This document shows positions 3,078 through 60,586 of a DNA stretch of 64,000 nucleotides, piece by piece. The DNA lies in NCBI GenBank assembly GCA_015068345.1, contig SVKS01000003.1:2168-66167 (forward strand), read 5' to 3'. Under the pieces are notes generated by a model. The model ran no database searches. It saw only the letters and a program-made list of their open reading frames with translations, and was not told the origin of the DNA. The first letter of the stretch is position 1. Each line of letters begins with the position of its first letter. The DNA is from Oscillospiraceae bacterium. Its GTDB lineage: Bacteria > Bacillota > Clostridia > Oscillospirales > QAMX01. The position numbers were made by a program, and so were the translations under genes.

Positions 3078-3167
3078 TGGATCTCCTATAAAGAACCAGA
3101 AACATTCAAGTGAATCAATCAAAACAAGTCGTCAGTTGCGCAAATACGTGAATCATCATATTGCAAC

Positions 3168-3196: not shown

Positions 3197-3240
3197 TGAA
3201 TCATGAGTTAGTAACTTACGAGTTGATAAGGAACAATGGT

Positions 3241-4632: not shown

Positions 4633-4935
4633 AAATGATGTACCCCATTGGATTTTGGTAAACTGAATAGTAAGCATACGAGGATTAAGCATACCCCTGT
4701 CATCTTCCGCTGTTTTTTCTGACAGGTACAATTAACATAGAATGAAATCGAGCCGCTGACGACACCCCTTTTTAGAGTTGAATACCAACCACCGGAATAG
4801 CGCCTCGCCATTCGTCGGTTTTCTGAGCATTCTCGAAAAAGTTAAAACCATAATGCGTATATTCTCTTGACGAAGCGGATATATTTATGATAAAATACGG
4901 TTGATCATAGATTTTCCTAAATTTAGAGGTGTGAT

Positions 4936-6159: not shown

Positions 6160-6201
6160 ACAATTTCAAACAGCCCAAGAAAGCATCTCTGCCGATATGA
6201 T

Positions 6202-6247
6202 CCCCCTAAAGTAGACCACAGAAATATCCAAAGTCTATTTTAGGGGG
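6202..6247. repeat. 15-bp inverted repeat (1 mismatch, 16-nt loop); possible terminator or recombination-related site
   Basis: ccccctaaagtagac ... gtctattttaggggg, 43 nt after the ATPase stop codon. Confidence 0.4.
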
Positions 6248-6639
6248 TATTTCTATGGCCAAATCAAAGCATACCGCAGAGTGGAAGATAGAAATCCATT
6301 GCTTTCGGCATTTATAGCATTGATCTATAATTTGCTCCGACATTAGAATATTTCGTTTCTATTTCCGCCATCGCAGAATACCGAATAAACCTAAGATCAT
6401 ATTCTACACAAAGCCTTATTCATCTCCCGAATTTCTTAGAAAGGTGGTAGCCAAAAATCGAGAGACCTTATAGTTCGGAGACACACAAGCTAACTGTTCA
6501 AAACGAAGAATTTACTATCACTAACATTTCACCTATTTACTCAGAAGAAGAATATCCACTTGTTAAGAGGGGAATAGAATTGCAACTCTATGAAGTATTC
6601 AGCAAGCACATGCCCATTGAGTCCTAAAAGGGGACATCC

Positions 6640-6668
6640 TTGCAAAATTGAAGCTACTGCTTTATACT
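6640..6668 (+). promoter_or_regulatory. sigma-A type promoter for the recombinase gene
   Basis: TTGCAA (6640-6645), 17-nt spacer, TATACT (6663-6668). Followed by SD AAAGGAG and the TTG start at 6720. Confidence 0.5.
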
Positions 6669-6719
6669 ATCCATGTCGTTTGTAGCTCATCTTGACAATA
6701 TGCGAAGAAAGGAGTTATA

Positions 6720-8228
6720 TTGAACCTTTTTGATGCAATCTATACCAGACAGTCGGTAGACCGAATTGACAGCATATCGGTGGAAAGCCAGGCAGAGTTC
6801 TGCAAAAAGGAGGTGATGGATGGCCTATATAAAGTCTATACAGATCGAGGGTACAGCGGAAAAAATACCGATCGACCTGCATTTCAGGAGTTAATGGAGG
6901 ATATACAAGAGGGAAAAATCCGTCGAGTCATTGTTTATCGTCTTGACCGCATCAGTCGTTCTGTTTTGGACTTTGCAAATGTCATTGATGTTTTCCAAAA
7001 GCATCATGTCGATTTTGTGAGTACAATGGAGAAGTTTGATACCGGAAGCCCCATTGGTAAAGCTATGCTGATGATTGTAATGATCTTTGCTCAGCTGGAG
7101 CGAGAAACAATTCAACAGCGTGTAACCGATGCGTATATCTCCCGCAGCAAACGCGGGTTTTATATGGGTGGACGAGTAACCTATGGCTTCGAGTTGCAAG
7201 ACACCATGATTGAAGGCATACGTTCCAAAAAATATGTCCCTATTGAATCCGAGGCAAATGTGATTCGCACCATCTTTGCTTTATATGCTGAGCCTCAAAC
7301 TTCTTTGGGTGATGTAATGAGACACCTTGAACAGGCAGGTATCACAAAACGAAATGGTAAACTATTCAATCGTTCTGGTTTGAGAGATATCGTTATCAAT
7401 CCTGTATATGTCAAAGCAGATTATCAGATATATGACTTTTTCAAAAACCAGGGAACAAACATAGCCAATATTCCCGAAGATTTTATAGGGACAAACGGAA
7501 CATATTTGTACTCTGGTACCACAAAAAAACGAAAGACCGTTTCCCTTGAAGGTCATACATTGGTGTTGGCTCCACACGAGGGTTTAATCGATTCGCAGAC
7601 ATGGTTAAAATGTCGGGTGAAATGTTTGAATAATCATAGTGTTGCAAGGCCAATCAAAGCGAAGGTTACTTGGCTGGCAGGAAAGATCAAGTGTGGATGC
7701 TGTGGTTATGCACTTACTGCAAAAATATATCACTGCAAAACAAAAAGCGATAACCGTTACTATCTCTGCAGCAACAAATATCATGCCGGAGGCTGTTCCT
7801 TTGGATCCCTAAACGCAGATAAAGTAGACGAAATTGTTTTTCGCGAAATGCAGAAGAAGCTTTCCGAATTCAAGGTCCTTCGGAAACAAGAGACCGAAAA
7901 GTTAAACCTCACTTCCCTTAAAATACGGGAACGTATCGCAGAGATTGAGACCGAGATCTCTTCTCTGCTTGATAAACTTACTGTGGCAAATACTACTGTT
8001 GCAGAATACATCAATTCTCGTATCTCTTCCTTGGATTCGGAAAAGAAAGAGTTATACAAGGAGCTTTCTCAGGCTGATTCATCCGCAAAAAATACAGCGG
8101 AGATTCTTAGTGATTATTTTAGTCACTGGGACGATCTTACCATCAGTGAAAAGATAACCGTCGTTGATATTATCATTGAAAAAATCGTTGCCACAGAAGA
8201 AGAAATTCAAATTATTTGGAAAATTTAG
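6720..8228 (+). CDS. large serine recombinase (resolvase/invertase N-domain + recombinase domain + zinc ribbon + coiled coil)
   Basis: N-terminal AIYTRQS (Ser nucleophile context), VYRLDRISRS, ERETIQQRV. Cys-rich zinc-ribbon block KCGCCGYALTAKIYHCK...YYLCSNKYHAGGC. C-terminal heptad-like region. TTG start with a good SD. Confidence 0.9.
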   Translation: MNLFDAIYTRQSVDRIDSISVESQAEFCKKEVMDGLYKVYTDRGYSGKNTDRPAFQELMEDIQEGKIRRVIVYRLDRISRSVLDFANVIDVFQKHHVDFVSTMEKFDTGSPIGKAMLMIVMIFAQLERETIQQRVTDAYISRSKRGFYMGGRVTYGFELQDTMIEGIRSKKYVPIESEANVIRTIFALYAEPQTSLGDVMRHLEQAGITKRNGKLFNRSGLRDIVINPVYVKADYQIYDFFKNQGTNIANIPEDFIGTNGTYLYSGTTKKRKTVSLEGHTLVLAPHEGLIDSQTWLKCRVKCLNNHSVARPIKAKVTWLAGKIKCGCCGYALTAKIYHCKTKSDNRYYLCSNKYHAGGCSFGSLNADKVDEIVFREMQKKLSEFKVLRKQETEKLNLTSLKIRERIAEIETEISSLLDKLTVANTTVAEYINSRISSLDSEKKELYKELSQADSSAKNTAEILSDYFSHWDDLTISEKITVVDIIIEKIVATEEEIQIIWKI

Positions 8229-8350
8229 GAGTCCATATTGTACTCATTCTATGACTCTTGTTCAGGTGAAGCACTTCGGATCGTTACCGACCGGCTTGAC
8301 CAGAAGAACATCTACGCCTTCAACCCCGCCCTGCCCCCGAATCTGCGATA
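8229..8350 (+). pseudogene. orphan 3' coding remnant of a backbone gene at the right island junction
   Basis: Directly after the recombinase TAG, the same frame stays open for 40 codons (ESILYSFYDSCSGEALRIVTDRLDQKNIYAFNPALPPNLR*). Composition switches to GC-rich at about 8262. A strong terminator follows. There is no start codon or SD. Confidence 0.3.
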
Positions 8351-8355
8351 GCGCA

Positions 8356-8396
8356 AATCCCCGCCTTTTCACAAAGGCGGGGATTCTGTTTCTTTC
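8356..8396 (+). terminator. rho-independent terminator
   Basis: aatccccgcctt-ttcaca-aaggcggggatt (12-bp stem) followed by the T-rich ctgtttctttc. Confidence 0.7.
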
Positions 8397-8398
8397 GG

Positions 8399-8427
8399 TT
8401 GAACAAGCTCTTTTTCTGTGGTATGAT
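8399..8427 (+). promoter_or_regulatory. sigma-A type promoter (extended -10) for the radical SAM gene
   Basis: TTGAAC (8399-8404), 17-nt spacer ending in TGg, TATGAT (8422-8427). Confidence 0.5.
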
Positions 8428-8457
8428 AAGTCCAAAAGGATCACACAGCAAAGGAGA

Positions 8458-9438
8458 ATGCCCATGAATACCCCCATTTACTCAGGAATCATCACCAATT
8501 ATGTCTGTACCGCCGCCTGCCGGCATTGTATGTTCGCCTCTTCCCCCGCTCTGCCCAAGGAATATATCTCCCGGGAGATGGCGGAGAGGCTGGCAAGGCT
8601 CCTGCGGAAAGCGGGAACCGACTCGGTACACATCGGTGGGGGCGAACCCTTTATGGATTTTGAAGCCCTTACCACCTTGATTGCCTGTCTGAACGACCAG
8701 GGAATCGGTATCGACTACATCGAAACGAACGCCTTTTGGTGCAAAAACGAGGATTTTGCTCGAAAGCGGCTCACCCACCTGCGTTCCCTGGGAGTGGAGA
8801 CCATCATGGTTTCGGTGGATCCCTTCCATATTGAATACATTCCCCTGGAGCGACCCATTCGTCTATGTCAACTGCTCCGGGAGAGTGGCTTTGACTATTT
8901 TGTGTGGAAGGAGCGTTATCTTCGCATGCTTTCCCGTCTGGACCGGACCCGTACCTACTCCCATCAGGAGTTGAAGGATATTCTGGGGGAGGATTACGTC
9001 ACCGAAACCGCCCGAGAATACGGGCTTGGTATGAATGGACGAGCTCTGGGCATTGCGAAAGACCTTTTCCCCCGCTGTCCGGCAGAGCACTGGCTAAGCA
9101 ACTCCCCCTGTGGTTCCATTGGGGACACCGCCCACTGCCACCTGGACCTTTACGGGAATATCGTTCCCTCCGGCTGTCCGGGGCTTTCAGCAAAAGCAGA
9201 GGATTATCTGAACGAAGCCTTTCCCGCCGACCGATATCCGGTTTTGTCCCGTCTGGCAACGGGCGGCACGACGGCGCTTTTCAATTACGCAAGGGAGAAG
9301 GGATTCACTCCTGATCCCGCAGGATATCCCAGCCGTTGCTCCCTTTGCTACGCCATGCGAGTCTTCCTTTTGGAGATGGCCCCCTCCCAGGATCTCGCCC
9401 CCGTTTGCTTTTACCGTGGGATGGAAGCGGTTACATAA
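8458..9438 (+). CDS. radical SAM protein with C-terminal Cys-rich (twitch/SPASM-like) region
   Basis: CX3CX2C motif CTAACRHC at residues about 15-22 and a GGGEPF SAM-binding block. C-terminal CHLDLYGNIVPSGCPG and CSLCY cysteines. AUG at 8458 with SD AAGGAGA. The listed 8164 start would read through a terminator and promoter. Confidence 0.8.
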   Translation: MPMNTPIYSGIITNYVCTAACRHCMFASSPALPKEYISREMAERLARLLRKAGTDSVHIGGGEPFMDFEALTTLIACLNDQGIGIDYIETNAFWCKNEDFARKRLTHLRSLGVETIMVSVDPFHIEYIPLERPIRLCQLLRESGFDYFVWKERYLRMLSRLDRTRTYSHQELKDILGEDYVTETAREYGLGMNGRALGIAKDLFPRCPAEHWLSNSPCGSIGDTAHCHLDLYGNIVPSGCPGLSAKAEDYLNEAFPADRYPVLSRLATGGTTALFNYAREKGFTPDPAGYPSRCSLCYAMRVFLLEMAPSQDLAPVCFYRGMEAVT

Positions 9439-34939: not shown

Positions 34940-34978
34940 AAAAGTCCGACGCAGCTTTTGTTCTGCGCCGGACTTTTA
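34938..34978. terminator. bidirectional terminator
   Basis: aagtccg(a)cgcag-loop-ctgcg(c)cggactt flanked by A- and T-runs. Confidence 0.6.
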
Positions 34979-34980
34979 CT

Positions 34981-37536
34981 TTAGCTTTCAATTTTCACGT
35001 TCAGGGCTAAATCAAACAACTTTTCTGCCTCTGCTCCGGTTACACCATAATTATGGGTTCCCTTTTTTCCGGAAGAGTGATTGTAATCCATCCATATCCA
35101 AACACCATCCTGGTCATAGCCAACCGTCACCCTGCGACCCCATTGGTTGGTATATTTTTTTGTGTAGGCTGCTTTGGTTGGTTTGAATCCCTTCTTCCAG
35201 GTTCCGATTACAATCTGCCGATGATCCACATGACTAAGCATGACCCGGATAATACGGTCCCCATCAAAATCTTCCCTATGCACTTCGTATTCAGAAGGAT
35301 ATTCCACGGAAATATCCAGGCTTTCTGCCACAAGAACATATTTCCCCTCGCGACACTCTATTTCCGGAAGCCCGGTCAGTGTTCCCTTTTTCAGCGCAAC
35401 GGCAAATACCCAAACATTCTCACTGCCGCCGCCCGTACCGGCAATTTCCCCCTCTCCACCGGCGGGATACCAATGCATCAGAATCACCGATTTTCCGGTA
35501 TCCTCATGGGTATCGAGAAATACTTCCCTTACTTGACAGGAACTCTCGGTTCCACCCAGGTACAAATATAGATCATATTCCCTAAAAAACGCTTGATCAT
35601 ACCGTTGGATCAAGTACCGTTTCAAATCTACCCGCGGATCACCCTCTCCCAATTCGGGGTTGTAGGCCCCTTGAAAAGGCCAAACCCTATATTCCCCATG
35701 GGGTAGCTGTTCAAGATCGGATTCGGAGCGAATAATCATTTGCTTCGTTTCTGCTTTCTCCCACTCACTTACCAGAAGCAGACTTTCAAATTCACATGCT
35801 TCAGCTGATTCCGGTTTTTCCGGAGAACGAACCTGTAACGGTGGTTGCCACGGCCCGGTGTCCTCATACACCATATCATGCGGGCAGGAAGCAAGGCTTA
35901 CGTAACGAAAAATTTCATTGGCAATCAGCGATTTGTCCCGTGAAATATCGGGATGCAGATATCCCCCATAGCAACCGGAAGGATCTTCAAAATCCATCCA
36001 AATCCATTTTCCGTCTTTGTCCATACCCATCTCTATGTCTCCTTCCCAAAAGGTAGGAAGGCTACTGAATGACTCGGCTTCGGTTTGTATAAATCCGTTT
36101 GGATAATAACCAACCTCTGCAAAAACCTCCTCCGGGACGCCATCAAAGTAAAGCCGAAGTCCCACAAAATCAGCATCCATATAGGTTTTGAACCGATATC
36201 CGCTGTTTTCCATAACCCGGTAAGCCAGCGATACACCGTTGCCCCGGTATATTGCCGAAACGATTTCCGCATCCTCCGTCTGAGTCACCACCACATCGGG
36301 AAGCATCCCATTCAACCTTCCCTTTTCCACCTCAACAGCTACCAGCCAATCACGCATGGCCCCTTCCGAATCCCGGTACCATTCCACATTCTCCCTGCCG
36401 GATTTCCGTACCGTAATTTGCATTTCATATCGTTCTTTTTCCCAGTTCCAGTTCAGATCCGATACCGTATAGCTTCCAAGGGGATCGGCCTGGCGAATCA
36501 GGAAGAGAAACAAATCCTTCTTTTCAAAATATTCCCCGTCGTAGCTTTCGGTAAAACTTTCAAAGGAAAGAGTCGGATCGGATTCGGTGGATGCCGGATC
36601 GCCAGGCGCAAGATAGGGCCATAAAAGCATTCCATCATAAAGATCGGTATTTTTGAAATCTGCTTCGGAGGAAATCAGCACCTTCCCCATAGGATAGTCC
36701 AAAAGACCGGCTCGATATGCATCCCGGATCAGCGATCCGGTTTCGGGTGATAAGATTTCATAAAACTCTGTTTTTGCAAGCTTGCCCGGCACCTCGATAT
36801 CCTTCACAATGGTAGTTTCGGAGCCGGCAAAACTCAGTTCTCCGGAATCTCCCAACAACACTTCCATATCGGTATACAAGGTTTCTTCCATCACCTTAAC
36901 CAATGGGAATGCAGCTTCCCCTACTCCGATGATATCCTTTTCCACCTCCATGGCAATGCACCACCGGGCCGGGGCCATATTGTCTGACGTGGTGTGAAGA
37001 CATTGCAAATTCAGCTCATACCGTCCGGTTTCCATATTCAGGGTAAAATCCAATAGTTCGGGACGGTTTTGGCCCTGCCCAAGGTTGATTTGAAACAACA
37101 GCAAATCGTGGTCTACAAAGAATTCCTCCGGATAACGAGATGCCACCACATCAACAAATGATCTTCTCTCTCCGTTGCTTTCAAAAGTCAGGGAGGTGTA
37201 GTATTCCAGCTCGCTAAACGACGCTTCGTTCCGCACCACTGTTTCCGCCGCCGCAGGAGATGGCACGCCGGTATCGATTCCTACATAATATTGCTTTTCC
37301 ACCGCCTGTAAAACCGAATTTTCTCCAACGTCAGCAATCCGCCATGCATACCCTTGGTATGGCACCATACTCTGAAGGGGTTTTGGGGAAACCAGATTCT
37401 CCACGTGGACGTCCTCTGTGTTATTTTCTTCCTGTTGTATCTCACTCTGCACTTCGGTGGTAGTATATCCACATCCTCCCAAAAGCAGGATTGCTATTGT
37501 AAACAGAATCCCGATCCATATACTCCTTTGCTTCAC
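34981..37536 (-). CDS. 851-aa multi-module lipoprotein of the tandem family (module order D1-D1-D2-D1-D2)
   Basis: GTG start. Signal peptide with lipobox LLLGGC|G. Three copies of the FF-x-x-x-DL-x-L ... EVEKG-type module and two copies of the GYD/DKDG-x-W-x-WMD[FY]...SG module. Confidence 0.7.
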   Translation of the reverse strand: MKQRSIWIGILFTIAILLLGGCGYTTTEVQSEIQQEENNTEDVHVENLVSPKPLQSMVPYQGYAWRIADVGENSVLQAVEKQYYVGIDTGVPSPAAAETVVRNEASFSELEYYTSLTFESNGERRSFVDVVASRYPEEFFVDHDLLLFQINLGQGQNRPELLDFTLNMETGRYELNLQCLHTTSDNMAPARWCIAMEVEKDIIGVGEAAFPLVKVMEETLYTDMEVLLGDSGELSFAGSETTIVKDIEVPGKLAKTEFYEILSPETGSLIRDAYRAGLLDYPMGKVLISSEADFKNTDLYDGMLLWPYLAPGDPASTESDPTLSFESFTESYDGEYFEKKDLFLFLIRQADPLGSYTVSDLNWNWEKERYEMQITVRKSGRENVEWYRDSEGAMRDWLVAVEVEKGRLNGMLPDVVVTQTEDAEIVSAIYRGNGVSLAYRVMENSGYRFKTYMDADFVGLRLYFDGVPEEVFAEVGYYPNGFIQTEAESFSSLPTFWEGDIEMGMDKDGKWIWMDFEDPSGCYGGYLHPDISRDKSLIANEIFRYVSLASCPHDMVYEDTGPWQPPLQVRSPEKPESAEACEFESLLLVSEWEKAETKQMIIRSESDLEQLPHGEYRVWPFQGAYNPELGEGDPRVDLKRYLIQRYDQAFFREYDLYLYLGGTESSCQVREVFLDTHEDTGKSVILMHWYPAGGEGEIAGTGGGSENVWVFAVALKKGTLTGLPEIECREGKYVLVAESLDISVEYPSEYEVHREDFDGDRIIRVMLSHVDHRQIVIGTWKKGFKPTKAAYTKKYTNQWGRRVTVGYDQDGVWIWMDYNHSSGKKGTHNYGVTGAEAEKLFDLALNVKIES

Positions 37537-37557
37537 GCCCTTTTCCCCCTGTCTTTT

Positions 37558-38592
37558 TCAGTTTCCAAGTTCCGCTGTCAATACGACCTCCAAAAGGTTG
37601 ATCGCTTCGATTCCTGTGACTCCGTAGTTCATTGCCGCATACTTCCCCGTGGGGTGCATAAAGTCAACCCAAAGCCAGTCCCCCTTGAAGTCATACCCAA
37701 CCCGAACATTGTTCCCACCATGAGTTGCTATTTCTTCGACCCTAATCGCCGGATCCAGGAAAAAGCCGTCCTTCCAATATGCCACTTCCGCATAGCAGGC
37801 ATGTTTTGTAACGTCCCCATCCACAATCCATTGGTCGACCATAACTCTCACTCCCCAATGCCATGTATCGCACAAAGATTGAACACCCTCATATCGATCG
37901 GTTTCCAGTTGTACACCATAGGGCCCGGAAAAATAGCAGTTTCCATGCTTATTATAAGCAACTTCCAACTCAATTCCCGGCAAATACTCCTTCGGCAAAG
38001 CCCCCTTCTCCACGTCCAATGCAAAAAGCAACATTTTGGAATATTCTTCCTCAATGTCCTGGGGTTGATGGCAAAGAACCCGAAGGATACTTTGTCCCGT
38101 TACCGGGTCATGGGTAAATTCTGTGGGTTCATAGCGAACTTCATTGGAACGAATCTCCACCAAAAAAAGCAGCAAGTCCTTTTTTTCAAAATAATCTTCG
38201 TTATATTTCTGTGTACATATCTCGTCAAACCCGATTTCGGGAGAGTTTTCCACCGAGTGCATGGTAGAATAATCAAAAAAGTTAACGACCCCCGCCTCCA
38301 AATAATACGGAACGGTTTGAAGCTCCTCCACAGTACTCAAAATTACCGTACCTTGATTGGCTTGATTGAGCGCATTCCATTTTCCATGAAAAACCTTCAT
38401 GAAATAACAACTTTTGGTATAGGATATGTTCACCGGCTCAGCTTGGATTTCACTCCCCGAAGGTTCCGCGACCTCCTCTAAATTGGATTCGGGTTCCGCC
38501 GTTGTTATGACTTCCGGTGCTTCTGCATTTTCACATCCCCAAAGGGTCAGCAGGAGCAATATACCAAGCACGAACGACATCGTATTTTTCAT
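37558..38592 (-). CDS. tandem-family lipoprotein, type A (copy A2)
   Basis: MKNTMSFVLGILLLLTLWGC|E lipobox. YFEKKDLLLFLVE, LLFALDVEKGAL, VRVGYDFKGDWLWVDFMHPTGKYAAMNYG, C-terminus LLEVVLTAELGN. SD AGGAGTGAGGAGG. Confidence 0.7.
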   Translation of the reverse strand: MKNTMSFVLGILLLLTLWGCENAEAPEVITTAEPESNLEEVAEPSGSEIQAEPVNISYTKSCYFMKVFHGKWNALNQANQGTVILSTVEELQTVPYYLEAGVVNFFDYSTMHSVENSPEIGFDEICTQKYNEDYFEKKDLLLFLVEIRSNEVRYEPTEFTHDPVTGQSILRVLCHQPQDIEEEYSKMLLFALDVEKGALPKEYLPGIELEVAYNKHGNCYFSGPYGVQLETDRYEGVQSLCDTWHWGVRVMVDQWIVDGDVTKHACYAEVAYWKDGFFLDPAIRVEEIATHGGNNVRVGYDFKGDWLWVDFMHPTGKYAAMNYGVTGIEAINLLEVVLTAELGN

Positions 38593-38601
38593 ATTACCTC
38601 C

Positions 38602-39648
38602 TCACTCCTTTCTGGGTCCAAGTTCTGCCCGAAGTACATAAGGCAGTAAAATCCGGGAATCCATACCGTCGGACCAACTATTTACTGCACCATAGCAGCC
38701 CGATACGTCCCGGAAATCCACCCATTTCCATACTCCTTTTGCATCATATCCCACCACTACTACCCGTCCGTCGGATAGGGTCATCTCCTGTTGCATTTCG
38801 GCTGGTTCGGGTGAAAATCCATTTTCAAAATAACAAACCCTGGGATTGCTTTCGGCAAACCACCCATTAATCAAAACCCCATATTCGCCGGCCGTTTCAT
38901 CAGCAAGGGGTTGAACATCCCACGAATGCTCGTAGCTCATCTGTATGGATACCCCATGCTTACCATCCGCTGTATATCCCTCTGCCGTGTAGGGAAGATT
39001 TACATGGGCTCCCCTGATTACGAAGGGTTGGAGACCCTCTCCGTTGTCCATAAGTCCCTTTTCCACGGAAATTGCCATTAACCAGCTTCCGGTTCCCGTA
39101 TTATACCCCCAGGAATCACTTTCTGTATTGATATACACCTCGTAAGAAGCACTTTCCGGGATATAAAGAAATTCTGCAACACGAACATCAAAGGATCCGC
39201 TCCCGGCATACGCAGGAATCAGGAATAAATCTTTTGTTTCAAAAAACAATTCATCATACCCCTCTTCATCCAGGGCCTGCACCGAAAACTTTGGAATGCT
39301 CTCCCAATCCCACTCTCCCTCTGCCTCGTAATTCGGATCCCACACCAGCACGTCCTTTGACCAAAACAAATTTTTCAGTTCTTCCACCGAGTGGATGACC
39401 ACCGGGTCATTATCCCAAAAGTCGCTTCCGTTCACCAGGTAGCTTTTCGCTTCAAATTCCATCGGCACTCGGAGGGGAACCACTTCCGATTCACTTTCCG
39501 GCTCATTCTCACTTTCAATGGAAATACTATCGCTCTCGCTTTCCTCTTCAAATGTGATCTCACTTGTAACTACCTCGGCTTCGGTGCCGCAACCCGCAAG
39601 GGTCATCACCAAAAGCAGCAGCCAGGCGAGCCATCGTCCCTTTCCCAT
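38602..39648 (-). CDS. tandem-family lipoprotein, type B (copy B2)
   Basis: AUG at 39648 (SD AAAGGAGAGGGAGA). MGKGRWLAWLLLLVMTLAGC|G lipobox and acidic EEESESDSISIESENEPESESE linker. FFETKDLFLIP, WLMAISVEKGL, VVVGYDAKGVWKWVDFRDVSGCYGAVN. Confidence 0.7.
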   Translation of the reverse strand: MGKGRWLAWLLLLVMTLAGCGTEAEVVTSEITFEEESESDSISIESENEPESESEVVPLRVPMEFEAKSYLVNGSDFWDNDPVVIHSVEELKNLFWSKDVLVWDPNYEAEGEWDWESIPKFSVQALDEEGYDELFFETKDLFLIPAYAGSGSFDVRVAEFLYIPESASYEVYINTESDSWGYNTGTGSWLMAISVEKGLMDNGEGLQPFVIRGAHVNLPYTAEGYTADGKHGVSIQMSYEHSWDVQPLADETAGEYGVLINGWFAESNPRVCYFENGFSPEPAEMQQEMTLSDGRVVVVGYDAKGVWKWVDFRDVSGCYGAVNSWSDGMDSRILLPYVLRAELGPRKE

Positions 39649-39701
39649 TCTCCCTCTCCTTTCATAATTGTTTCTTTTTCGGGGCAGAGTAAATGTCTTT
39701 T

Positions 39702-40790
39702 TCAGTTTCCAAGTTCCGCTGTCAAGACGACCTCCAAAAGATTTTCCGCATTGCTTCCCGTGGCTCCATAGTTGATGGCTGCATACTTCCCAGATGGATG
39801 CTGATAATCCACCCAAAGCCAGTCTCCTTTGGCATCATACCCCACCCGAACAGTATCCCCCTCCGGGGTCACTATTTCCTCTTCCTTGAAAGCAAGCTCC
39901 AGGAATAGCTCATCCTTCCAGTATGCCACCTCCACGTAGCAGGTATGGTAGGTCGCCCCATCACTACTTTCACTCAAAGACTGATTGGCAAGTAAAATGA
40001 TCCCCCAACGGAATTCGTGGTACATAGTATAAACCTCATAAAGATAGTTCGATATTGCAACTCCATGTTCCCCGGCATAGTAGTGATTTTGGAAGGGCGT
40101 GTAGCTGATTTCCACAACCGGAGTAGGGAATGCCGCCCGGTTTTCCCCTGAGAAAACACCCTTTTCCACCTCGATCGCAAAAAGCCATCGGTTCCGGTCA
40201 CTTTCCTCATTTGGCACCGGACGGTGCAGTAGTAAATCCAATTGCCACCCTCCGTTTTCTGGCTCTTCGGTCAAACCCACCATTTCATATTGAGATGCCT
40301 CCTGTCTGTTTCCCATCCAAACCAGAAGCAAATCATGGGTTTCAAAAAAGGAATCGGTAAACTTTTGATTCCAAACATCCAGAAAAGCAACATCCCGTAG
40401 CTCCTTATTGGGCTGAAAGGGAGCAATGTAACCTTCAACACGGGCAAGGGTATATACCTCGTAGTTCATAATTTGATCTGCGGAGGTAATAACCACCGGA
40501 TCGCCGGGATTCTTTTTTTCACTGCTTTCGTAGTATCCGCTATCGCCCCTGTGCCACATGCGATAACTGTGACAGATGTACTCCAATTTCCGGGGCATTG
40601 TTTCGGGCTCGGGCTGACTTTCCAGTTCTTCGGACGCTTGCTCCGTTTCGCTCTCTTCTACCGGAACCCCTTCGTTTTCGAGTGGCAGGATCTCTTCCTC
40701 AATTGACTCTACACCGCAGGCACAGTTCAAAGTCAGCAACAATCCTAAAAATACAACAAAGCACCCTTTTTGAAAAAACATACATTTCAT
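39702..40790 (-). CDS. tandem-family lipoprotein, type A (copy A1)
   Basis: AUG at 40790 overlaps the upstream stop (ATGA); SD GAGGAGGTGGGG. LLLTLNCAC|G lipobox. FFETHDLLLVWMG, WLFAIEVEKGVF, VRVGYDAKGDWLWVDYQHPSGKYAAINYG, C-terminus LLEVVLTAELGN. Confidence 0.7.
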   Translation of the reverse strand: MKCMFFQKGCFVVFLGLLLTLNCACGVESIEEEILPLENEGVPVEESETEQASEELESQPEPETMPRKLEYICHSYRMWHRGDSGYYESSEKKNPGDPVVITSADQIMNYEVYTLARVEGYIAPFQPNKELRDVAFLDVWNQKFTDSFFETHDLLLVWMGNRQEASQYEMVGLTEEPENGGWQLDLLLHRPVPNEESDRNRWLFAIEVEKGVFSGENRAAFPTPVVEISYTPFQNHYYAGEHGVAISNYLYEVYTMYHEFRWGIILLANQSLSESSDGATYHTCYVEVAYWKDELFLELAFKEEEIVTPEGDTVRVGYDAKGDWLWVDYQHPSGKYAAINYGATGSNAENLLEVVLTAELGN

Positions 40791-41824
40791 TCTAACCCCA
40801 CCTCCTCTGAAACAACACCAATATCGGTCCGTAACACAGTTTGGAACCATTCTCTGGCTTCTATGGGTCTCAATCCTTCGTTGGTCGCTCCGTAGCACCC
40901 TGATACATGACCAAAATCCATCCATAACCACGTACCATCTTCATCATATCCAACCGTAATAACCCGTCCATCGGAAGCTTGTAGCGTTTGCTTTTTGAAA
41001 GCGGCAGGCGGCTCAAAACCATTTTGATGATATGCAATTTTGACAGTTCCCTGGTACCAGTAAGCATTATAAATCAGGCCATACGTTCCCGATGTTTCAT
41101 CCTTCCAGGGTTCGAATGCACCCGACAATACCCGAACACCGTTTATTCCATCCGGTGATTCTCCATATATCATTTGATCCACATTCACGTGTACAGCTTG
41201 AATACTATAGTTTTTTTCCTTCTTCGATGGATTCAACAGACCCTTTTCCACCTCCAAAATCCCGAGCCATACTCCAACATCTTCCGTCACTGCAAAGTAT
41301 TTATTTTCCGTTCGAAGATTGACTTCGTAGGAATCGGATTCCGGCACGTACATAAAGTCGGTCACGCGTACGGTATACATGCCGCTTCCCGTCGTGGTCG
41401 GAATCAACAGCAAATCGTGGTTTTCAAAAAAAGTCTCGTCATATTGATTTTCTCCCAGTGATTCCACCGAAAAGAAAATGATATCTTCCCAGTTTTCTAC
41501 ATTTGCCTGTTTCTCGTAATCCCAAAGGAACTCCTCCTTGCCCCAGGCTATGGTTTGAAAATCTTCCACCGACCGAATCAACACCGGATCTTCGTTATAA
41601 AAATCCCCCCCGCTCACGCGATAACTTACCGTTTCAAAAGGGAGTGCCACCCGAGGAGGGTTCGATTCACTTTCCGCCTCATTCTCACTTTCAACGGTAA
41701 TACTATCACTCTCGCTTTCCTCTTCAAAGACAATCTCACTTGTGACTACCTCGGCTTCGGTGCCGCAACCCGCAAGGGTTATCACCAAAAGCAGCAGCCA
41801 GACGATCCATTGTCCTTTTCCCAT
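40787..41824 (-). CDS. tandem-family lipoprotein, type B (copy B1)
   Basis: AUG at 41824 (SD GAAAGGAGTGGGAAA). MGKGQWIVWLLLLVITLAGC|G lipobox and acidic linker. FFENHDLLLIP, WLGILEVEKGLL, ITVGYDEDGTWLWMDFGHVSGCYGATN. Confidence 0.7.
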   Translation of the reverse strand: MGKGQWIVWLLLLVITLAGCGTEAEVVTSEIVFEEESESDSITVESENEAESESNPPRVALPFETVSYRVSGGDFYNEDPVLIRSVEDFQTIAWGKEEFLWDYEKQANVENWEDIIFFSVESLGENQYDETFFENHDLLLIPTTTGSGMYTVRVTDFMYVPESDSYEVNLRTENKYFAVTEDVGVWLGILEVEKGLLNPSKKEKNYSIQAVHVNVDQMIYGESPDGINGVRVLSGAFEPWKDETSGTYGLIYNAYWYQGTVKIAYHQNGFEPPAAFKKQTLQASDGRVITVGYDEDGTWLWMDFGHVSGCYGATNEGLRPIEAREWFQTVLRTDIGVVSEEVGLE

Positions 41825-41888
41825 TTTCCCACTCCTTTCACGGTTGTTTCCTTTTTGGGGTATATCGCCCCATAATACTCTTGGTCCC

Positions 41889-41917
41889 ATGATAGCACAA
41901 GTGTTGCGTTCTGTCAA
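41889..41917 (-). promoter_or_regulatory. sigma-A type promoter of the five-gene lipoprotein operon
   Basis: Minus strand: TTGACA (41917-41912), 17-nt spacer, TATCAT (41894-41889). It lies between the malic-enzyme terminator and the B1 start. Confidence 0.6.
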
Positions 41918-41936
41918 GATTTTGGTCAAATTGATA

Positions 41937-41968
41937 ACAAAAAGAGGTTTGCAAGCCTGCAAACCTCT
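41937..41968 (-). terminator. rho-independent terminator of the malic enzyme gene
   Basis: agaggtttgca-agcc-tgcaaacctct (11-bp stem) with a T-run on the minus strand. Confidence 0.75.
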
Positions 41969-41988
41969 TCCGGATATTCACTTTTTAT

Positions 41989-48297: not shown

Positions 48298-50646
48298 ATG
48301 AAACACACCTGCGATCGCATCACTGCTTTGTTTCTCGTCTTGCTTATGACTGCTTCCCTCCTTGCATCCTGCTCGGGGGAGGCGGATAAAGCCTCCGATG
48401 AACCCAAAACGGTTGCTGTGTACGATGATTACGTGGCAAACACCATCGACCTTGGTCTTGCAGAGGACGAGGCTGTGATAGAGGTGATCGAGGTCGACGG
48501 TAAAATTCGTGCCACCATCGGAACGGATGGAAATAAAACTGAGATCGACGGTATCGAAATTTCATTGGGAAACAATGTTTTTGATATCAACGAACCCTAT
48601 TCTACCGAATACCGCTATTATGACAAGGACTTTGTGGAGGATACCCAAAAGCGAGAGAAGACGAAGTCTTCCCACGAAGTTGCCCTGCTTGCCGACCCGA
48701 CAGTGGACTTTACATATGGTGCTGAACCTTTGCTTTATACCTACGATAGTGGGATCCCTTGCTATTTTGGGGTGGAGTACTTCTTCTATCGGGATGGGGA
48801 AGTCCAGGAAGGGGTTATTATTCCAGAGGAATATGCAGATGTAGATGGCATGGTATACGAGCATTATAATGCCAGGGCCCACATCATGCTCCATGAAGAC
48901 GTAATATATGCCGGAATCAATTACGATTGCTCTTTCTCCTGGGACCTGTTTGTTAACGACCATTTCGTAGAAATGCCCACCTGGCGACCCGGTGCCCCGG
49001 AATACATCTTCTGCGGGTTGATCGGAGTTGACGGGATTCCCTACGGCCTGGTTCACGTGTGGGAAAACGACAAAAATGGTCAGGTGGTGAATACGCTGTG
49101 GGAAGAAACCAGAATGGTCCCCCTGACCCCTGAAACCACCGAATTACCCCTGGAGGGCACCAAAATTGGCGGTATTGCCACCGGCGGGGCCTTCAGCGAT
49201 GGGAAATACGGCTACTATATGTGCGGCAGTGAGCTTTGGCGAACCGACGGCAAGGAAAGCAAGCGGATTGCCGACCTGATTTTCAATGGTGTCAACGAAA
49301 TGTCCAAGGTGCGCGCGGTGCGCCCCCTTTCGGATGGGCGCATTCTGGTGGTTGTAGGTAGAGAGTTGATCGAGCTATCCCCCAAAAAGGATGGCACAGG
49401 CGACGAACGAAAGGTGTTTACAATTGGGGTGCTCAATCTGTTTGGAGACCCCGACGAATTGATTCTTACCTTGTCGAAATTCAATCGCATCTCGGATGAA
49501 GCAGCCTTTGTGGTGAAGGAATTTGATAACAAAGCCAGCCTGAATCTGGCTATTCTTTCCGGGGAAATTGCTATGGTGGCCACCCGGGATCAGTTCATGC
49601 TGAAAAATTACATCAAGCAGGAGCTTCTTTTGCCCCTGGAGGAGGTTGCGCCCGAGCTGTTTGAACAGGACGTTTTGATCGAAAGCGTTGTGGATGCCAC
49701 AAAGGTGAACGGGACCTGCTATTATCTGCCGCGGCACTTCGAAATTCGTGCGATAGCCACCGATCCCAGTGTTTTGGAAGAGGGGCAGACCTTCGAAACC
49801 CGGCAGGAGTATTACGATTTCCTATTGGAAAAGGATCCAGAGGGTTTGAAAATAGCTCTCAAAAGGGATTGGTTTGTGTACTATGCTCAGGAGATTGACG
49901 AATGGATCAATTTTGAAAGCAACACCGCCCATTTTGATGACGGCAGCTTTGAAGCATTGTTGGAGTTTTGCAATCACGGCGGCACCCAGGACGAGGTGGA
50001 TTTTTATACCATGAATCCGTCCTCGACCCGAGTATACAATAGTTCGATGCAGTTGCTGGGTTCCATACAGAGCAACTACTTCACCGACGTGAAGGCCGCC
50101 AAGGAGTATCAGGCAAATCCACCCCAATTGATACAGGCACCAAGGGTTATCTATCCCATGCCCTCCTCGGTTCACGATGGGTATGAGATGTTTGCCCGTC
50201 ATTATTTCGCCGTGGTGGACAACGAAGTGTCCCGGGAAGCGGCAGGGGATTTCCTGCGGTGGCACTTCCTGGAAGATGTGGTTGAAGAGTTCCCGATGAA
50301 TGAGAGGTTTGCACCGATGACCTCGTATGGAACAAGTGCCTTTTCGGTCAACCGGGACGAAACCGACCGGTATCTTGCACGGAATATCAACAGCCACATC
50401 GAGGTGGAAGAGGTGAACGATGAAAACTTCTATGACGTGCTCTACAATATGATGTGCGGACAGGAGCAGTACGACAAGACCTGGGAAATCATCCGTCAGG
50501 CCGACCACTTCCAGTATTTCCGGAACGAAGTCTTTGACGTGATGTACGAAGAAGCGGGACGGTACTTTGCGGGAAATATTACCGCCAAACAAGCCGCCGA
50601 TTACGTGCAAAACCGCATTTCCCTCTACCTTGCGGAGCAGGGGTAA
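48298..50646 (+). CDS. 782-aa lipoprotein: unknown N-terminal half + extracellular solute-binding-protein-like C-terminal half (paralogue 1)
   Basis: LLMTASLLASC|S lipobox; SD AAGGAGG. Mid-region LNLAILSGEIAMVATRDQFMLKNYIKQELLLPLEE and tail AGRYFAGNITAKQAADYVQNRISLYLAEQG resemble family-1 SBPs. The N-terminal about 350 aa is unrecognised. Confidence 0.55.
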   Translation: MKHTCDRITALFLVLLMTASLLASCSGEADKASDEPKTVAVYDDYVANTIDLGLAEDEAVIEVIEVDGKIRATIGTDGNKTEIDGIEISLGNNVFDINEPYSTEYRYYDKDFVEDTQKREKTKSSHEVALLADPTVDFTYGAEPLLYTYDSGIPCYFGVEYFFYRDGEVQEGVIIPEEYADVDGMVYEHYNARAHIMLHEDVIYAGINYDCSFSWDLFVNDHFVEMPTWRPGAPEYIFCGLIGVDGIPYGLVHVWENDKNGQVVNTLWEETRMVPLTPETTELPLEGTKIGGIATGGAFSDGKYGYYMCGSELWRTDGKESKRIADLIFNGVNEMSKVRAVRPLSDGRILVVVGRELIELSPKKDGTGDERKVFTIGVLNLFGDPDELILTLSKFNRISDEAAFVVKEFDNKASLNLAILSGEIAMVATRDQFMLKNYIKQELLLPLEEVAPELFEQDVLIESVVDATKVNGTCYYLPRHFEIRAIATDPSVLEEGQTFETRQEYYDFLLEKDPEGLKIALKRDWFVYYAQEIDEWINFESNTAHFDDGSFEALLEFCNHGGTQDEVDFYTMNPSSTRVYNSSMQLLGSIQSNYFTDVKAAKEYQANPPQLIQAPRVIYPMPSSVHDGYEMFARHYFAVVDNEVSREAAGDFLRWHFLEDVVEEFPMNERFAPMTSYGTSAFSVNRDETDRYLARNINSHIEVEEVNDENFYDVLYNMMCGQEQYDKTWEIIRQADHFQYFRNEVFDVMYEEAGRYFAGNITAKQAADYVQNRISLYLAEQG

Positions 50647-50759
50647 ATCTCTAAACCCTGTTCCATGTGGAAGAATTTGAACCTTCCCGGAAAACGTCAT
50701 GGAATGGAATTGACAAGGGAAAAGCACGAAAGAAAAATAAAGTACCGAAAGGATGGAAT

Positions 50760-52988
50760 ATGGTGAAACGATATGAGTTGCGATTCCTTTCTGGCATATT
50801 GTTACTTTCTTTGATTGTTTCAGTCTTGGCAGCCTGCGCCGAAAGCCGGCAACAGGCCAATGATGCAACCGATACCTATCTCGGCGAAGTTATAGATATT
50901 GGTCTCGCTGAAAATGAAATGATTATGAACGTGGCCGAAATAGGAGGAGAGATTCGGTTTACCATCGGGGTAGAATGTGACGAGATAAATGCCCTATACG
51001 GAACAGACAAGGGGATTCCCTATAAAACTGAATACCGTTATTACGATATGGAGTTTATCGAGGATACCGCAAAACGGGAAACCACTACATCCTTCCAGGA
51101 GGTGGGGCGTGCTGATAACCTGGTTTTCGGGGGAGAACCCTTCGAAGAAGATGGATCCTACAACAGTGTGCAGTACCGCTTTTATCTGGATGGTCAGCCA
51201 ACCGGGCATGCAATCATTCCGGAAGACCAACTCACCGACAGCCCCGCCACACGCTACAACGCAAGGGTAAATCTTATGGAAAAGGATGGTATCATCTATG
51301 CCGGAATCTGTGGTATCAACTATTTTGCCGACAATGCCTGGAGCCTTTATATTGGAGATCATTTTGTCAAAAAAACGACCCAGAAGCCGGGCGTGGAAGT
51401 GGATTTTTTCGGATTGATGGAGATTGGTGGGACTCCCTATGCATTGATTCGGGAAAGAGAAGCAATTGCCGGGGCTTATCGTTATTTCAATTCTACCAAG
51501 GAAGCCGCCTGTCTAATCCCGCTGACCTTCAACACCATCGATCTTTCTGGTGAGGGGATTGAGATAGAGGGACGCCCCACGGGGGGAGCTTTTAGTGATG
51601 GGACTTATGGTTACTATATGTGCGGAAGCGAGCTTTGGCGTACCAATGGGGTGGACTGCAAAAAACTTGCCGATCTGATCTATTGCGGGGTGGATGAAAC
51701 CTCGGTGGTACGTAAAGTATGCACCCTTGCTGATGGGCGCATTCTGGTGGTAGCCAACGGCGGAATGATCGAGCTTACTGCGTCAGAAAGTATCGTTCCT
51801 GCTGAGCGAAGTGTATACACCCTTGGGGTTGTGAATTACTACAATTACTCCGGGCTTCTTTCCAAAACGGTTGCCAAATTCAACGGCCAATCGGATGGGG
51901 TTCGGTTTGTGGTAAAAGAGTACTCCGACATTACGAAGATGAATCTTGCCCTCCTGTCCGGGGAAGTGGATATGATAGTATCTTCGGATCACTTTATGCT
52001 GAAAAACTACGTAAAGCAGGGACTTTTGGCTCCCCTGGAGGAAGTTGCTCCTGCACTTTTTGAAGAAGGAGTTTTGATCGAAAATATCGTGGATGTTACC
52101 CGAATGGAAGGAATCTGCTATTTTCTTCCCCGGGAGTTCCTGATTGAAGGAAAAAGCGTTAGAAGCACCATTTTGGAAGAAGGACAAACCTTTGATCATC
52201 CCAAGGATTTCTTCGATCTTGTTTTGGAGACCTCCCCGACTTCGATGAAGTTTAACTCCAAGGATTTTCACATGGAGCATTATGGCACGAATATAGACGA
52301 TTGGATCGATTGGGATAATAACACGTGCCATTTTGATGATGGCAGCTTTGAAACTCTGTTGGAATTTTGTAACCTTGGGGCTGGTCCGGGAGAAACTCGA
52401 TCTCACGGCTCCGACGTTATGCCTTTTGGATTGCAAAATCTTATCAATCAGAATGAATTTGTTGATTGGGAGACAGCCAATGAATACTCCGGGGATTCCG
52501 CTTGGGTAGTGGTTCCTATTCCGTCAACGGTACACAAGGGCTTTGGCATTGATGCATTCGATTATTATGCCGTGGTAGATCGGGTGGAAAGTCGGGAAGC
52601 GGCGAGAGAATTTTTGGAATGGCATTTCCTGGCGGATGTGCTTGGAGAGATTCCTCCGGATGGTCCGGATGGATGGTCCAATGAAGTACTGTTTGAATCC
52701 GGTTATGACTATCTGTCCATCAATCGGGCAGAGTGTGAGCGAGTTCTCAGCCGAAACTTGATAGTCGAAGACGAAGATAACGAAGAAGAATTGGTAGTGG
52801 AGCAAAGACGGTACGAAGACAGCTGGAAGATCATTCAGCAAGCCGACCACCTTTGGTATTATAGCAATGCGGTGTTTGACGTGATGATGGAGGAAGCCTG
52901 TCGTTACTTTTCCGGAGATATCACTGCAAAACAGGCTGCCGACTACGTGCAAAACCGTATTTCCCTCTACCTTGCGGAGCAGGGGTAA
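50760..52988 (+). CDS. 742-aa lipoprotein, paralogue 2 of the SBP-like pair
   Basis: AUG at 50760 (MVKRYELRFLSGILLLSLIVSVLAAC|A). It shares TEYRYYD, GGAFSDG.YGYYMCGSELWRT.G, DGRILVV, HFMLKNYVKQGLLAPLEEVAP and an identical 22-aa C-terminus with the upstream gene. Confidence 0.55.
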   Translation: MVKRYELRFLSGILLLSLIVSVLAACAESRQQANDATDTYLGEVIDIGLAENEMIMNVAEIGGEIRFTIGVECDEINALYGTDKGIPYKTEYRYYDMEFIEDTAKRETTTSFQEVGRADNLVFGGEPFEEDGSYNSVQYRFYLDGQPTGHAIIPEDQLTDSPATRYNARVNLMEKDGIIYAGICGINYFADNAWSLYIGDHFVKKTTQKPGVEVDFFGLMEIGGTPYALIREREAIAGAYRYFNSTKEAACLIPLTFNTIDLSGEGIEIEGRPTGGAFSDGTYGYYMCGSELWRTNGVDCKKLADLIYCGVDETSVVRKVCTLADGRILVVANGGMIELTASESIVPAERSVYTLGVVNYYNYSGLLSKTVAKFNGQSDGVRFVVKEYSDITKMNLALLSGEVDMIVSSDHFMLKNYVKQGLLAPLEEVAPALFEEGVLIENIVDVTRMEGICYFLPREFLIEGKSVRSTILEEGQTFDHPKDFFDLVLETSPTSMKFNSKDFHMEHYGTNIDDWIDWDNNTCHFDDGSFETLLEFCNLGAGPGETRSHGSDVMPFGLQNLINQNEFVDWETANEYSGDSAWVVVPIPSTVHKGFGIDAFDYYAVVDRVESREAAREFLEWHFLADVLGEIPPDGPDGWSNEVLFESGYDYLSINRAECERVLSRNLIVEDEDNEEELVVEQRRYEDSWKIIQQADHLWYYSNAVFDVMMEEACRYFSGDITAKQAADYVQNRISLYLAEQG

Positions 52989-59626: not shown

Positions 59627-60586
59627 TTAGCCGATGGCTACGTATTCATCGCTGGGAGCGTTGAGACCCAGGTCGCCGGCAATGGTTTCGTTGATCTTCT
59701 TGGTGAAGTTGGGGGCATAAGCAATTTCCATTTCGGCAACGTCGGCTTCACCGGTCAGGATCTGGGCGGCCATGACACCGGTCTGGTAACCAAGGTCGTA
59801 GTAGCTGATGGAGAGGGTGGCAACGCCGCAACCGGCGCAGATGCCTTCTTCACCGGCAATGACAGGGATACCGGCAGGACGGCAGATGTTGTCGATGACA
59901 GGGGTATTGGAGGCAACCGTGTTGTCGGTGGGAACGTAGATTACGTCGCTTTCGGCAGCGGCATTGGTGGTAACGGCAGCCAGATCATTGGAATCGGAGA
60001 AGGGGTACTGGGTGCAGGTGTAACCAAGGGCTTCCAGTTCGGTCTGGACGGTGTCGACCTGATACTGGCTGTTGGCTTCGGCGGAGCAGAAGAGGAGGCC
60101 AACGGTCTTGGCGTCGGGGAACCATTCCTTGATCATGGCGGCCTGTTCATCCAGGGGAGCCAGGTCGGAGGTGCCGGAGACGTTGGTACCGACGGTACCG
60201 GTGAATCCTTCAATGCCAAGGGCTACGCCGTATTCGGTGACCGAGGTGCCCAGGATGGGGATATCACTGGTGGCGGCGACAGCGGCCTGGAGGGCCGGGG
60301 TGGCGTTGGCCATGATCAGATCGACTTCGGAGGAAACGAAGCCGTTGGCAATGGTGGCGCAGGTGTTGGAATCACCGGCGGCGTTCTGTTCGTCAAATTC
60401 AACCTTGTCTTCGCCGAGTTCGTCGATCAACGCAGCCTTAAAGCCTTCGGTGGCGGCATCGAGGGCGTCGTGGGTAACGAGCTGGCAAATGCCAACGGTG
60501 TACTTGTCATTTTCTGCGGATTCGCAGGAGGCCAGTGCCATGATCATCATGCAGGCCAGGACGAGGGCGAGAATTCTCTTTTTCAT
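59627..60586 (-). CDS. ABC transporter substrate-binding lipoprotein (ABC_sub_bind/COG2984 type)
   Basis: AUG at 60586 (MKKRILALVLACMMIMALASC|E lipobox; SD AAGGAGAAAC). YTVGICQLVTHDALDAATEGFKAAL...DLIMANATPALQAA is typical of this family. Confidence 0.8.
   Translation of the reverse strand: MKKRILALVLACMMIMALASCESAENDKYTVGICQLVTHDALDAATEGFKAALIDELGEDKVEFDEQNAAGDSNTCATIANGFVSSEVDLIMANATPALQAAVAATSDIPILGTSVTEYGVALGIEGFTGTVGTNVSGTSDLAPLDEQAAMIKEWFPDAKTVGLLFCSAEANSQYQVDTVQTELEALGYTCTQYPFSDSNDLAAVTTNAAAESDVIYVPTDNTVASNTPVIDNICRPAGIPVIAGEEGICAGCGVATLSISYYDLGYQTGVMAAQILTGEADVAEMEIAYAPNFTKKINETIAGDLGLNAPSDEYVAIG

Follow-up and report, generated by a model that had tools for sequence, protein, structure and literature searches.

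The 64,000 nucleotides (nt) analysed here come from a contig of an Oscillospiraceae bacterium (SVKS01000003.1) and are called the window; all coordinates are positions in it. The window carries a putative operon of five paralogous lipoprotein genes on the minus strand, denoted g1 to g5 in order of transcription. On the sequence comparisons made, the locus is best read as a fast-evolving core-genome expression site for a replaceable set of surface lipoproteins in an uncultured Gram-positive, plant-fibre-degrading member of the Clostridia from the ruminant gut. What is new here is the strain variation of the whole block, built from two domains (denoted D1 and D2) for which Pfam and NCBIfam have no entry and the PDB no analogue. 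An earlier note on this DNA had recognised the five open reading frames (ORFs), and all are present as follows, with gaps from g1 to g5 of -4, +53, +9 and +21 nt:

40787-41824, minus strand: g1, lipoprotein of 345 amino acids (aa) with leader and acidic linker; D1 ~41210-41659, D2 ~40790-41209
39702-40790, minus strand: g2, 362-aa paralog with its own signal peptide and the non-canonical lipobox LNCAC; D1 ~40131-40601, D2 ~39705-40130
38602-39648, minus strand: g3, 348-aa lipoprotein with leader copy 2; D1 ~39025-39480, D2 ~38605-39024
37558-38592, minus strand: g4, 344-aa paralog with lipobox LWGC; D1 37978-38436, D2 37561-37977
34981-37536, minus strand: g5, 851-aa lipoprotein; D1 ~36922-37389, D1-D2 ~35857-36735, D1-D2 34984-35814

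A replaceable cassette at a fixed site

Relatives of the locus were found in metagenome assemblies from ruminant gut and fall into four haplotypes, A (the window), B, C and D. On the homologue-bearing contigs the genes invariably lie between a malic-enzyme gene and a haloacid dehalogenase (HAD) hydrolase gene; the flanking genes are those for fumarase, malic enzyme, HAD hydrolase, aldolase and FGGY kinase. The earlier note had placed the block between housekeeping genes, as the malic-enzyme and HAD genes on either side confirm. It had also likened the block to strain-variable tandem lipoprotein clusters, naming an identical single-copy arrangement in all relatives as a finding that would refute it. 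The haplotype comparison shows no such arrangement and bears the likeness out: the genes keep their position, but strains that are otherwise nearly identical differ radically in how many they have and in their sequences.

Haplotype A: the window; genes of 345, 362, 348, 344 and 851 aa
Haplotype B: contigs L001-L004; genes of 232-263, 342, 351 and 852 aa; flank identity 94.5-97.5%
Haplotype C: contigs L005 and L006; genes of 327, 371 and 354 aa plus a frameshifted short gene, no 851-type gene; flanks 87-88%
Haplotype D: contig L008; genes of 341, 327 and 232 aa; flank identity 95-98%

Alignment of the flanks to the window defined the borders of the variable stretch:

34954-41705, minus strand: replaceable cassette, the stretch differing among haplotypes A, B, C and D
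45246/47802 down to 41708: left flank of L001-L004, 96.1-97.5% DNA identity to the window
34953 down to 27554: right flank of L001, L003 and L004, 97.0% DNA identity to the window
35199 down to 31018, one alignment: right flank of L002, 94.5%, its first ~250 nt only ~71% similar
Down to 41706: left flank of L008, 97.8% DNA identity
From 34953: right flank of L008, 95.4% DNA identity

The left border, at 41706-41708, lies 117 nt into g1, and the right border, at 34953, lies inside a terminator hairpin. Both breakpoints are sharp, and between them DNA similarity is lost except for short patches. Towards the 3' end of g5, L002 seemed to be a mosaic of A and B (35199); this was rejected as a BLAST extension, the L001 and L002 proteins being alike there and different from g5.

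The cassettes hold five genes in haplotype A, four in B, at least four in C and three in D. Best-counterpart proteins of A and the other haplotypes share 22-53% identity, the 851/852-aa pair 37%. Some cassette genes are nevertheless common to haplotypes, the 327-aa genes of C and D at 99% and the 232-aa genes of B and D at 95%, indicating that the locus is a mosaic of exchangeable genes. Haplotype C has a short gene (L005 439-1136, L006 3417-4114) made up of leader and D1 only, which a frameshift splits into 74 and 150 aa; its counterpart in haplotypes B and D is intact, at 232 aa. This gene lacks D2 and keeps the C-terminal TAELG motif.

In base composition the block stands apart from its surroundings, with a GC content of 44-49% per 500-nt segment (about 47%) against 55-61% in the flanks. 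The earlier note was thus right in calling the block AT-richer than its flanks, its spot count of 38% GC being too low. GC content at third codon positions (GC3) is 46-51% in haplotype A, 49-64% in B and 40-52% in C, compared with 65-73% in the flanks, and these differences between haplotypes suggest different histories or donors.

Leader and junction modules are shared between divergent genes

Two short modules of the cassette region are conserved between haplotypes:

41708-41824, minus strand: conserved leader copy 1, 117 nt, encoding MGKGQW..LAGC and then GTEAEVVTSEIVFEEESES; similarity to other haplotypes ends at 41706-41708
39532-39869, minus strand: conserved junction module, made up of the last 168 nt of g2, a 53-nt spacer and the 117-nt leader of g3

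The same 117-nt leader starts eight genes across the four haplotypes, encoding MGKGxW..LAGC followed by GTEAEVvTSEi.FEEESES, after which similarity collapses. In the window the leaders head g1 and g3 and lie within a 198-nt repeat (41663-41860 and 39487-39684) that is 89% identical. The junction module is 90% identical to its equivalent in haplotype C (L005 and L006), a value equal to or above the flank identity of that haplotype, while the genes on either side of it are only ~40% identical in protein between A and C.

A further repeat lies at the other end of the genes. The 3' 254 nt of g4 (37550-37803) repeats the 3' end of g2 (39694-39947) at 77% identity, and the two proteins have the common C-terminus NLLEVVLTAELGN, which is also found in the 354-aa protein of haplotype C. 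The C-terminal helix and strand may have been conserved as an element for interaction, or may serve as another handle for recombination.

Haplotype A is stable and its genes are maintained

At least 17 contigs, obtained from different samples, carry haplotype A. Eight of these were re-aligned to the window and are 99.6-100% identical to it. The variants of haplotype A comprise 10 synonymous and 13 non-synonymous changes, a ratio of non-synonymous to synonymous polymorphism (pN/pS) of ~0.36; this weak purifying selection indicates that the genes are maintained and not decaying. In one JGI sample the counterpart of g5 (L010 6543-9097) is read as two ORFs of 360 and 493 aa; over 13.5 kb this contig aligns to the window with a one-base gap and a single mismatch. 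The frameshift may be natural or may come from misassembly.

These data bear on a different explanation of the locus, namely that it is a passively carried foreign island without maintained function, or that it undergoes phase or antigenic variation within the cell, of the Mycoplasma Vlp/Vsp type. An atypical base composition might be expected of such an island, but the same site is occupied in all four haplotypes and in a sister species with 87-88% identical flanks, and no integrase, transposase or att-like repeats were found at the borders. Likewise, the conserved 5' leader common to the paralogs is a feature of Vlp/Vsp families too, and the frameshifted g5 of one sample and the split short gene of haplotype C also count in favour of this explanation; yet we found no repeat tracts at the promoter, no simple sequence repeats and no inverted repeats, pN/pS speaks for maintenance, and the eight re-aligned contigs give no sign of switching. 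We therefore regard this explanation, in either form, as very improbable. A mobile origin was also considered and rejected, given that tblastn of g4 and of a canonical D1 (see below) produced no matches in phage or plasmid records and that the borders carry no mobility genes.

The five genes form a putative single transcription unit

The signals that bracket the block were located as follows:

41889-41917, minus strand: sigma-70-type promoter TTGACA-17-TGnTATCAT in the conserved left flank, 11/12 consensus match
41942-41969, minus strand: upstream terminator, a hairpin plus T-run, AAGAGGTTTGC-aggctt-GCAAACCTCTT then TTTGTT, read directly from the sequence
34940-34977, minus strand: intrinsic terminator with a 15-bp stem directly 3' of the g5 stop, from the terminator scan

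Upstream of g1 the order is malic-enzyme stop, GC-rich hairpin with T-run, promoter and a GGAG-type ribosome-binding site. The TTGACA-17-TATCAT promoter proposed in the earlier note proved to be the best promoter-like site in the region and has a TG before the -10 element; its sequence is identical ahead of the first genes of haplotypes B and D. The malic-enzyme hairpin at 41942-41969 was not listed by the consensus terminator scan. At the other end, the hairpin at 34940-34977 is flanked by an A-run and, opposite it, a T-run; it lies between the convergent g5 and HAD genes and probably terminates both. Within the block, sites resembling promoters or terminators occur no more often than in shuffled sequence. 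From one promoter, one terminator and this background frequency of internal sites we infer that the five genes are transcribed as a single unit. A search for riboswitches and leader RNAs with Rfam gave no match anywhere in the window.

The products are predicted lipoproteins with acidic linkers

The five products are paralogs, as the earlier note had claimed, with BLASTP similarities far beyond chance. The closest pairs are g1-g3 (48% identity, E 4e-114) and g2-g4 (36%, E 1e-66); g1-g2 share 25% (E 2e-26), the cross-pairs ~25-28% (E around 1e-25), and g5 aligns to the other paralogs three times (E 1e-17 to 1e-6). With identities down to 25% inside one haplotype, the block does not result from recent tandem amplification.

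All the D1 and D2 motif strings quoted in the earlier note were found, and the window contains a total of seven D1 and six D2 copies; the third D1 of g5 has ALKKG in place of EVEKG. Of the lipoboxes that the note had listed, those of g1, g3 and g5 are canonical, matching the PROSITE PS51257 regular expression, and those of g2 (LNCAC) and g4 (LWGC) are non-canonical, although both proteins retain the Cys after a hydrophobic segment. In haplotypes B, C and D the expression matches 10 of 12 reading frames tested; the misses are the 852-aa protein of B and a 150-aa frame of C that is the second half of the frameshifted gene. The acidic linker is also present as described, covering 30-38 aa after the Cys, rich in Glu and Ser, with 23-39% Asp+Glu and as basic residues a single Lys in g5 and none in the other four. 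The mature proteins are acidic (pI 4.1-4.5). The products are probably exported and lipidated at the Cys after the signal peptide.

Elsewhere in the window are a Gram-positive pilin gene and two sortase genes, indicating that the host is a monoderm; the lipoproteins would then be anchored outside the cytoplasmic membrane, their globular parts, the heads, pointing outward. The genes in question (37-3077, plus strand) are a pilin backbone-like gene followed by the two sortase genes, a sortase-assembled pilus locus.

D1 and D2 match no known family or fold

The earlier note had recognised no family for the two modules, and searches by family, PDB sequence and fold led to the same result. For the five proteins, Pfam gave no match at E<=1, NCBIfam only sub-threshold matches to lipoprotein signal regions, and PHROGs nothing above noise; the PADLOC defence models gave a single match at E 0.036 and 11.7 bits, also not above noise. 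A profile of eight D1-D2 units had no match among PDB sequences, the best being cytochrome c' at only E 0.6. D1 and D2 are unrelated (hhalign probability 0.1%), so that D2 was rejected as a divergent form of D1.

An AlphaFold2 model of the mature region of g4 is confident, with a predicted local distance difference test score (pLDDT) of 81.7 and a predicted template-modelling score (pTM) of 0.69. In the model, D1 has an alpha/beta fold that begins with a strand and contains several short helices and a four-strand meander, and D2 is all-beta with a C-terminal helix. Foldseek found no analogue of this model in the PDB (best E 0.48) or BFVD (best E 0.055), template-modelling scores being <0.3. 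A canonical D1 protein of the wider family described below (P0148), modelled with pLDDT 84.2 and pTM 0.83, had no analogue in the PDB either (best E 0.79). The helix and four-strand meander of D1 suggested a resemblance to PrcB_C, PepSY, cystatin and BLIP-type inhibitor modules; this idea was dropped as Foldseek did not support it and Pfam families of these types (E<=1) were found neither for the window proteins nor among the most recurrent families of 80 D1 members.

Across 14 D1-D2 units, conservation reaches >=85% at only ~21 of the 292 head positions; most of these are Gly or aromatic, and a few are polar. Predicted strands, helices and loops do not differ in conservation, and hence we do not claim that loops vary around a conserved core.

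D1 belongs to a wider family of exported proteins of Clostridia

An exhaustive HMMER search of 1.84 billion representative proteins yielded 225 matches at E<=1e-3, of which only 9 reached E<=1e-30. These 225 representatives of the D1 family are clusters at 50% identity, and 151 proteins were retrieved for split-domain analysis. D1 is present in all 151, with 218 D1 domains in total and often 2-4 tandem copies in lipoproteins; D2 is present in only 12, essentially the family of the locus and two distant relatives. The window D1 gives a significant profile match over a ~140-aa unit. D1 is thus not unique to the locus and belongs to a broader, unnamed domain family of exported proteins in Clostridia. 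A word-indexed D1 profile search recovered 7 proteins only. Among 185,579 species representatives of GTDB the D1-D2 family occurs at one locus, in a metagenome-assembled genome from water-buffalo caecum, and no D1-D2 locus was found in the JGI metagenome collection by leader DNA or protein pattern. Two weak tblastn matches that appeared to be extra paralogs in the window (48766-48954 and 59717-59926) are spurious, lying antisense to or inside unrelated genes.

Canonical D1 domains carry the motifs F.AQYIRTNGY, YDEAFF, EEGSGSIRHEV and T.DMAEWH.-IE..KG, and share with the window copies the core pattern I.S..EL...YD..FF...DL.L...W...E..KG. The window copies lack the canonical GSGS.RH and T.DMA.WH and keep at most G-S-G, the Trp, the hydrophobic core and the E-V-E-K-G end. 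Unlike these copies, canonical members are not fused to D2, and the few genomic contexts examined included no variable cassette; around single D1 proteins of other taxa, no partner gene recurred.

A type I dockerin was found in 8-9 of 80 scanned D1 proteins and a BlaR1-type M56 peptidase in 3 of 80, and the only informative public name among D1 proteins is 'dockerin type I repeat-containing protein', from Herbivorax sp. In several proteins (P0025 and P0046, also P0053, P0070 and P0048) D1 forms the extracellular C-terminal part of M56 transducers of the BlaR1/MecR1 type, or occurs in single-pass membrane proteins with an anti-sigma-like N-terminus; in some contexts D1 may be a sensor module.

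The dockerin proteins, presumably cellulosomal, raise the question of whether the heads are modules for binding plant cell-wall glycans, mucus or other bacteria, which would attach the cell to fibre or to partner cells, with their variation reflecting niche specialisation. A lipid anchor with a long spacer is suited to display, and the surrounding region is rich in genes of hemicellulose and pectin use (GH43, oligogalacturonate lyase, arabinose catabolism), but no transporter or carbohydrate-active enzyme is co-transcribed with the locus. No carbohydrate-binding module, lectin or adhesin family or fold was detected with Pfam and Foldseek, and the canonical polar motifs of D1 (GSGS.RH, T.DMA.WH) are precisely those missing from the window copies. 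Moreover, protein identities of 22-53% beside ~97% identical flanks go far beyond the usual divergence of nutrient-binding proteins. We consider a binding role of this kind quite unlikely.

A candidate expression site for contact surfaces

The fixed site, the sharp borders, the anciently diverged alleles, the shared leader and junction modules and the small number of conserved head positions point to an expression site under strong diversifying or frequency-dependent selection combined with recombination. In the mechanism we propose, one strong promoter would drive 3-5 co-transcribed genes, the acidic linker would hold each protein off the membrane, and each protein would end in one or more D1-D2 globular heads, most positions of which would be free to vary. 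At this one site, strains of the same species carry different cassettes that diverged anciently. We infer from the pattern of conserved and divergent stretches that recombination is the mechanism of exchange: cassettes would be exchanged by homologous recombination, anchored by the promoter and 117-nt leader on one side and by the terminator on the other, and the internal junction modules (3' end, spacer and leader) would let single genes be shuffled. The heads would most likely serve as contact surfaces for an external antagonist and so be under diversifying pressure.

As to the antagonist, receptor-binding proteins of phages or tailocins, whose adsorption the heads would either permit or block, are the candidate we prefer by analogy with the S-layer cassette types of C. 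difficile, holding it at somewhat less than an even chance. Several observations weigh against it or against the expression-site reading as a whole. The locus has no linked gene related to phages, tailocins or receptors, and tblastn of g4 and canonical D1 against 50,697 phage and 72,556 plasmid records gave zero matches. A coat like an S-layer would require very high expression, against which the low GC3 speaks; the lipoboxes of g2 and g4 do not satisfy the strict rule; and it is not obvious why a receptor role would call for several co-expressed paralogs of different types. Finally, 'diversifying selection' here describes a pattern in four haplotypes from one narrow clade.

A second kind of antagonist would make the locus an array of extracytoplasmic immunity or inhibitor lipoproteins, whose heads neutralise a secreted lipase, peptidoglycan hydrolase, protease or bacteriocin of competitors and of which strains collect different sets. 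Tandem membrane-anchored paralogs of strain-variable number and sequence are what TilA and other immunity repertoires look like (PMC10730906), and both the conserved scaffold with variable surfaces and the fusion of D1 elsewhere to dockerin or to the extracellular part of BlaR1-type M56 proteins fit a module that binds proteins or ligands. On the other hand, Pfam identified no toxin, type VII secretion system (T7SS), LXG or bacteriocin gene among the sampled ORFs of the window or in the labelled flanks of the haplotypes, and there was no DUF576 or Imm-family match. Heads of 290-800 aa with long spacers that push them off the membrane are generally unusual for immunity proteins, and the paralogs of the locus diverged anciently and were not recently amplified. 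This role is a serious contender, though on balance an unlikely one.

In its broadest form the expression-site reading would hold that D1 and D2 are two previously undescribed folds, and that the locus is a 'leader-anchored' polymorphic surface system in which the promoter and repeated 117-nt leader act as the handle for swapping sets of heads between strains and related species, thereby deciding who attacks the cell (phage, tailocin or toxin) or recognises it, with D1 as a general extracytoplasmic recognition module of Clostridia that cellulosomal proteins and BlaR1-type sensors have also put to use. We offer this as a tentative proposal that may well fail in one part or another.

Other features of the window and significance

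Two adjacent paralogous genes for lipoprotein-like products of 782 and 773 aa lie on the plus strand at 48298-50646 and 50667-52988. Both products have signal peptides with Cys, share identical C-terminal 22 residues and have no Pfam match, and the genes lie in a second AT-richer stretch (46-51% GC); possibly this is a further pair of variable surface proteins. An AT-rich island (40-48% GC) at 3000-9000, plus strand, contains genes for an ATPase_2/DUF234 protein (3196-4632), an AAA_14/DUF4143 ATPase (4936-6159) and a large serine recombinase (6720-8228), followed by a radical-SAM gene, and looks like an integrated element or its remnant.

To our knowledge, the Clostridia of gut and rumen are mostly uncultured and their surface biology is almost unknown. 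The locus offers a sharply bounded example of strain-level surface diversification in this group. If the heads are receptors for phages or tailocins or proteins that neutralise toxins, cassette type would predict strain susceptibility, and it could serve as a strain-typing marker in ruminant microbiome data. The D1 family merits a family definition and a structure, and a function for it would annotate hundreds of 'hypothetical' exported proteins. The D1-D2 combination itself is confined to a narrow clade.

Comparison with known systems

In its working the locus resembles three known systems, the Mycoplasma Vlp/Vsp genes, the staphylococcal Lpl/TilA cluster and S-layer cassettes, and it belongs to none of them. 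In the Mycoplasma Vlp/Vsp/Vsa systems, paralogous surface lipoprotein genes are clustered, with a highly conserved 5' region and signal peptide and divergent mature parts. Paralogs clustered at one site behind a conserved 5' leader are likewise seen here. However, the mature proteins of the locus have no in-frame tandem repeats and their heads are globular, not repetitive; the promoter has no homopolymer or simple-sequence tract, no invertible elements are present, and variation occurs between strains and not within a clone.

The staphylococcal lpl cluster encodes TilA proteins, which confer immunity to the T7SS lipase TslA; its copy number varies, as is typical for immunity repertoires (PMC10730906). 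Like our locus, Lpl/Csa/TilA (DUF576) genes are tandem paralogous lipoprotein genes behind a promoter, with strain-variable copy number and sequence, and their products, extracytoplasmic binding proteins (PMC10730906), can be likened to those of the locus. The two differ in that the proteins described here have no DUF576 match, unrelated domains and predicted folds, long acidic spacers and two-domain or multi-unit heads, and in that their genes lie in the core genome between housekeeping genes, not on a genomic island, with no TslA-like toxin or T7SS genes adjacent.

In C. difficile, SlpA is a phage receptor, and the exposed variable part of the S-layer cassette type determines phage susceptibility (PMC10100898). 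The slpA cassette and our locus both come in discrete, highly divergent cassette types within one species, with the most exposed part the most variable; slpA cassettes are exchanged by recombination, as we propose for our locus too. The locus products have no SLH or CWB2 match in Pfam and so are not S-layer proteins; in place of a cell-wall-binding domain they have a predicted lipid anchor, each cassette contains several paralogs, and the repeated 117-nt leader would provide an internal handle for recombination.

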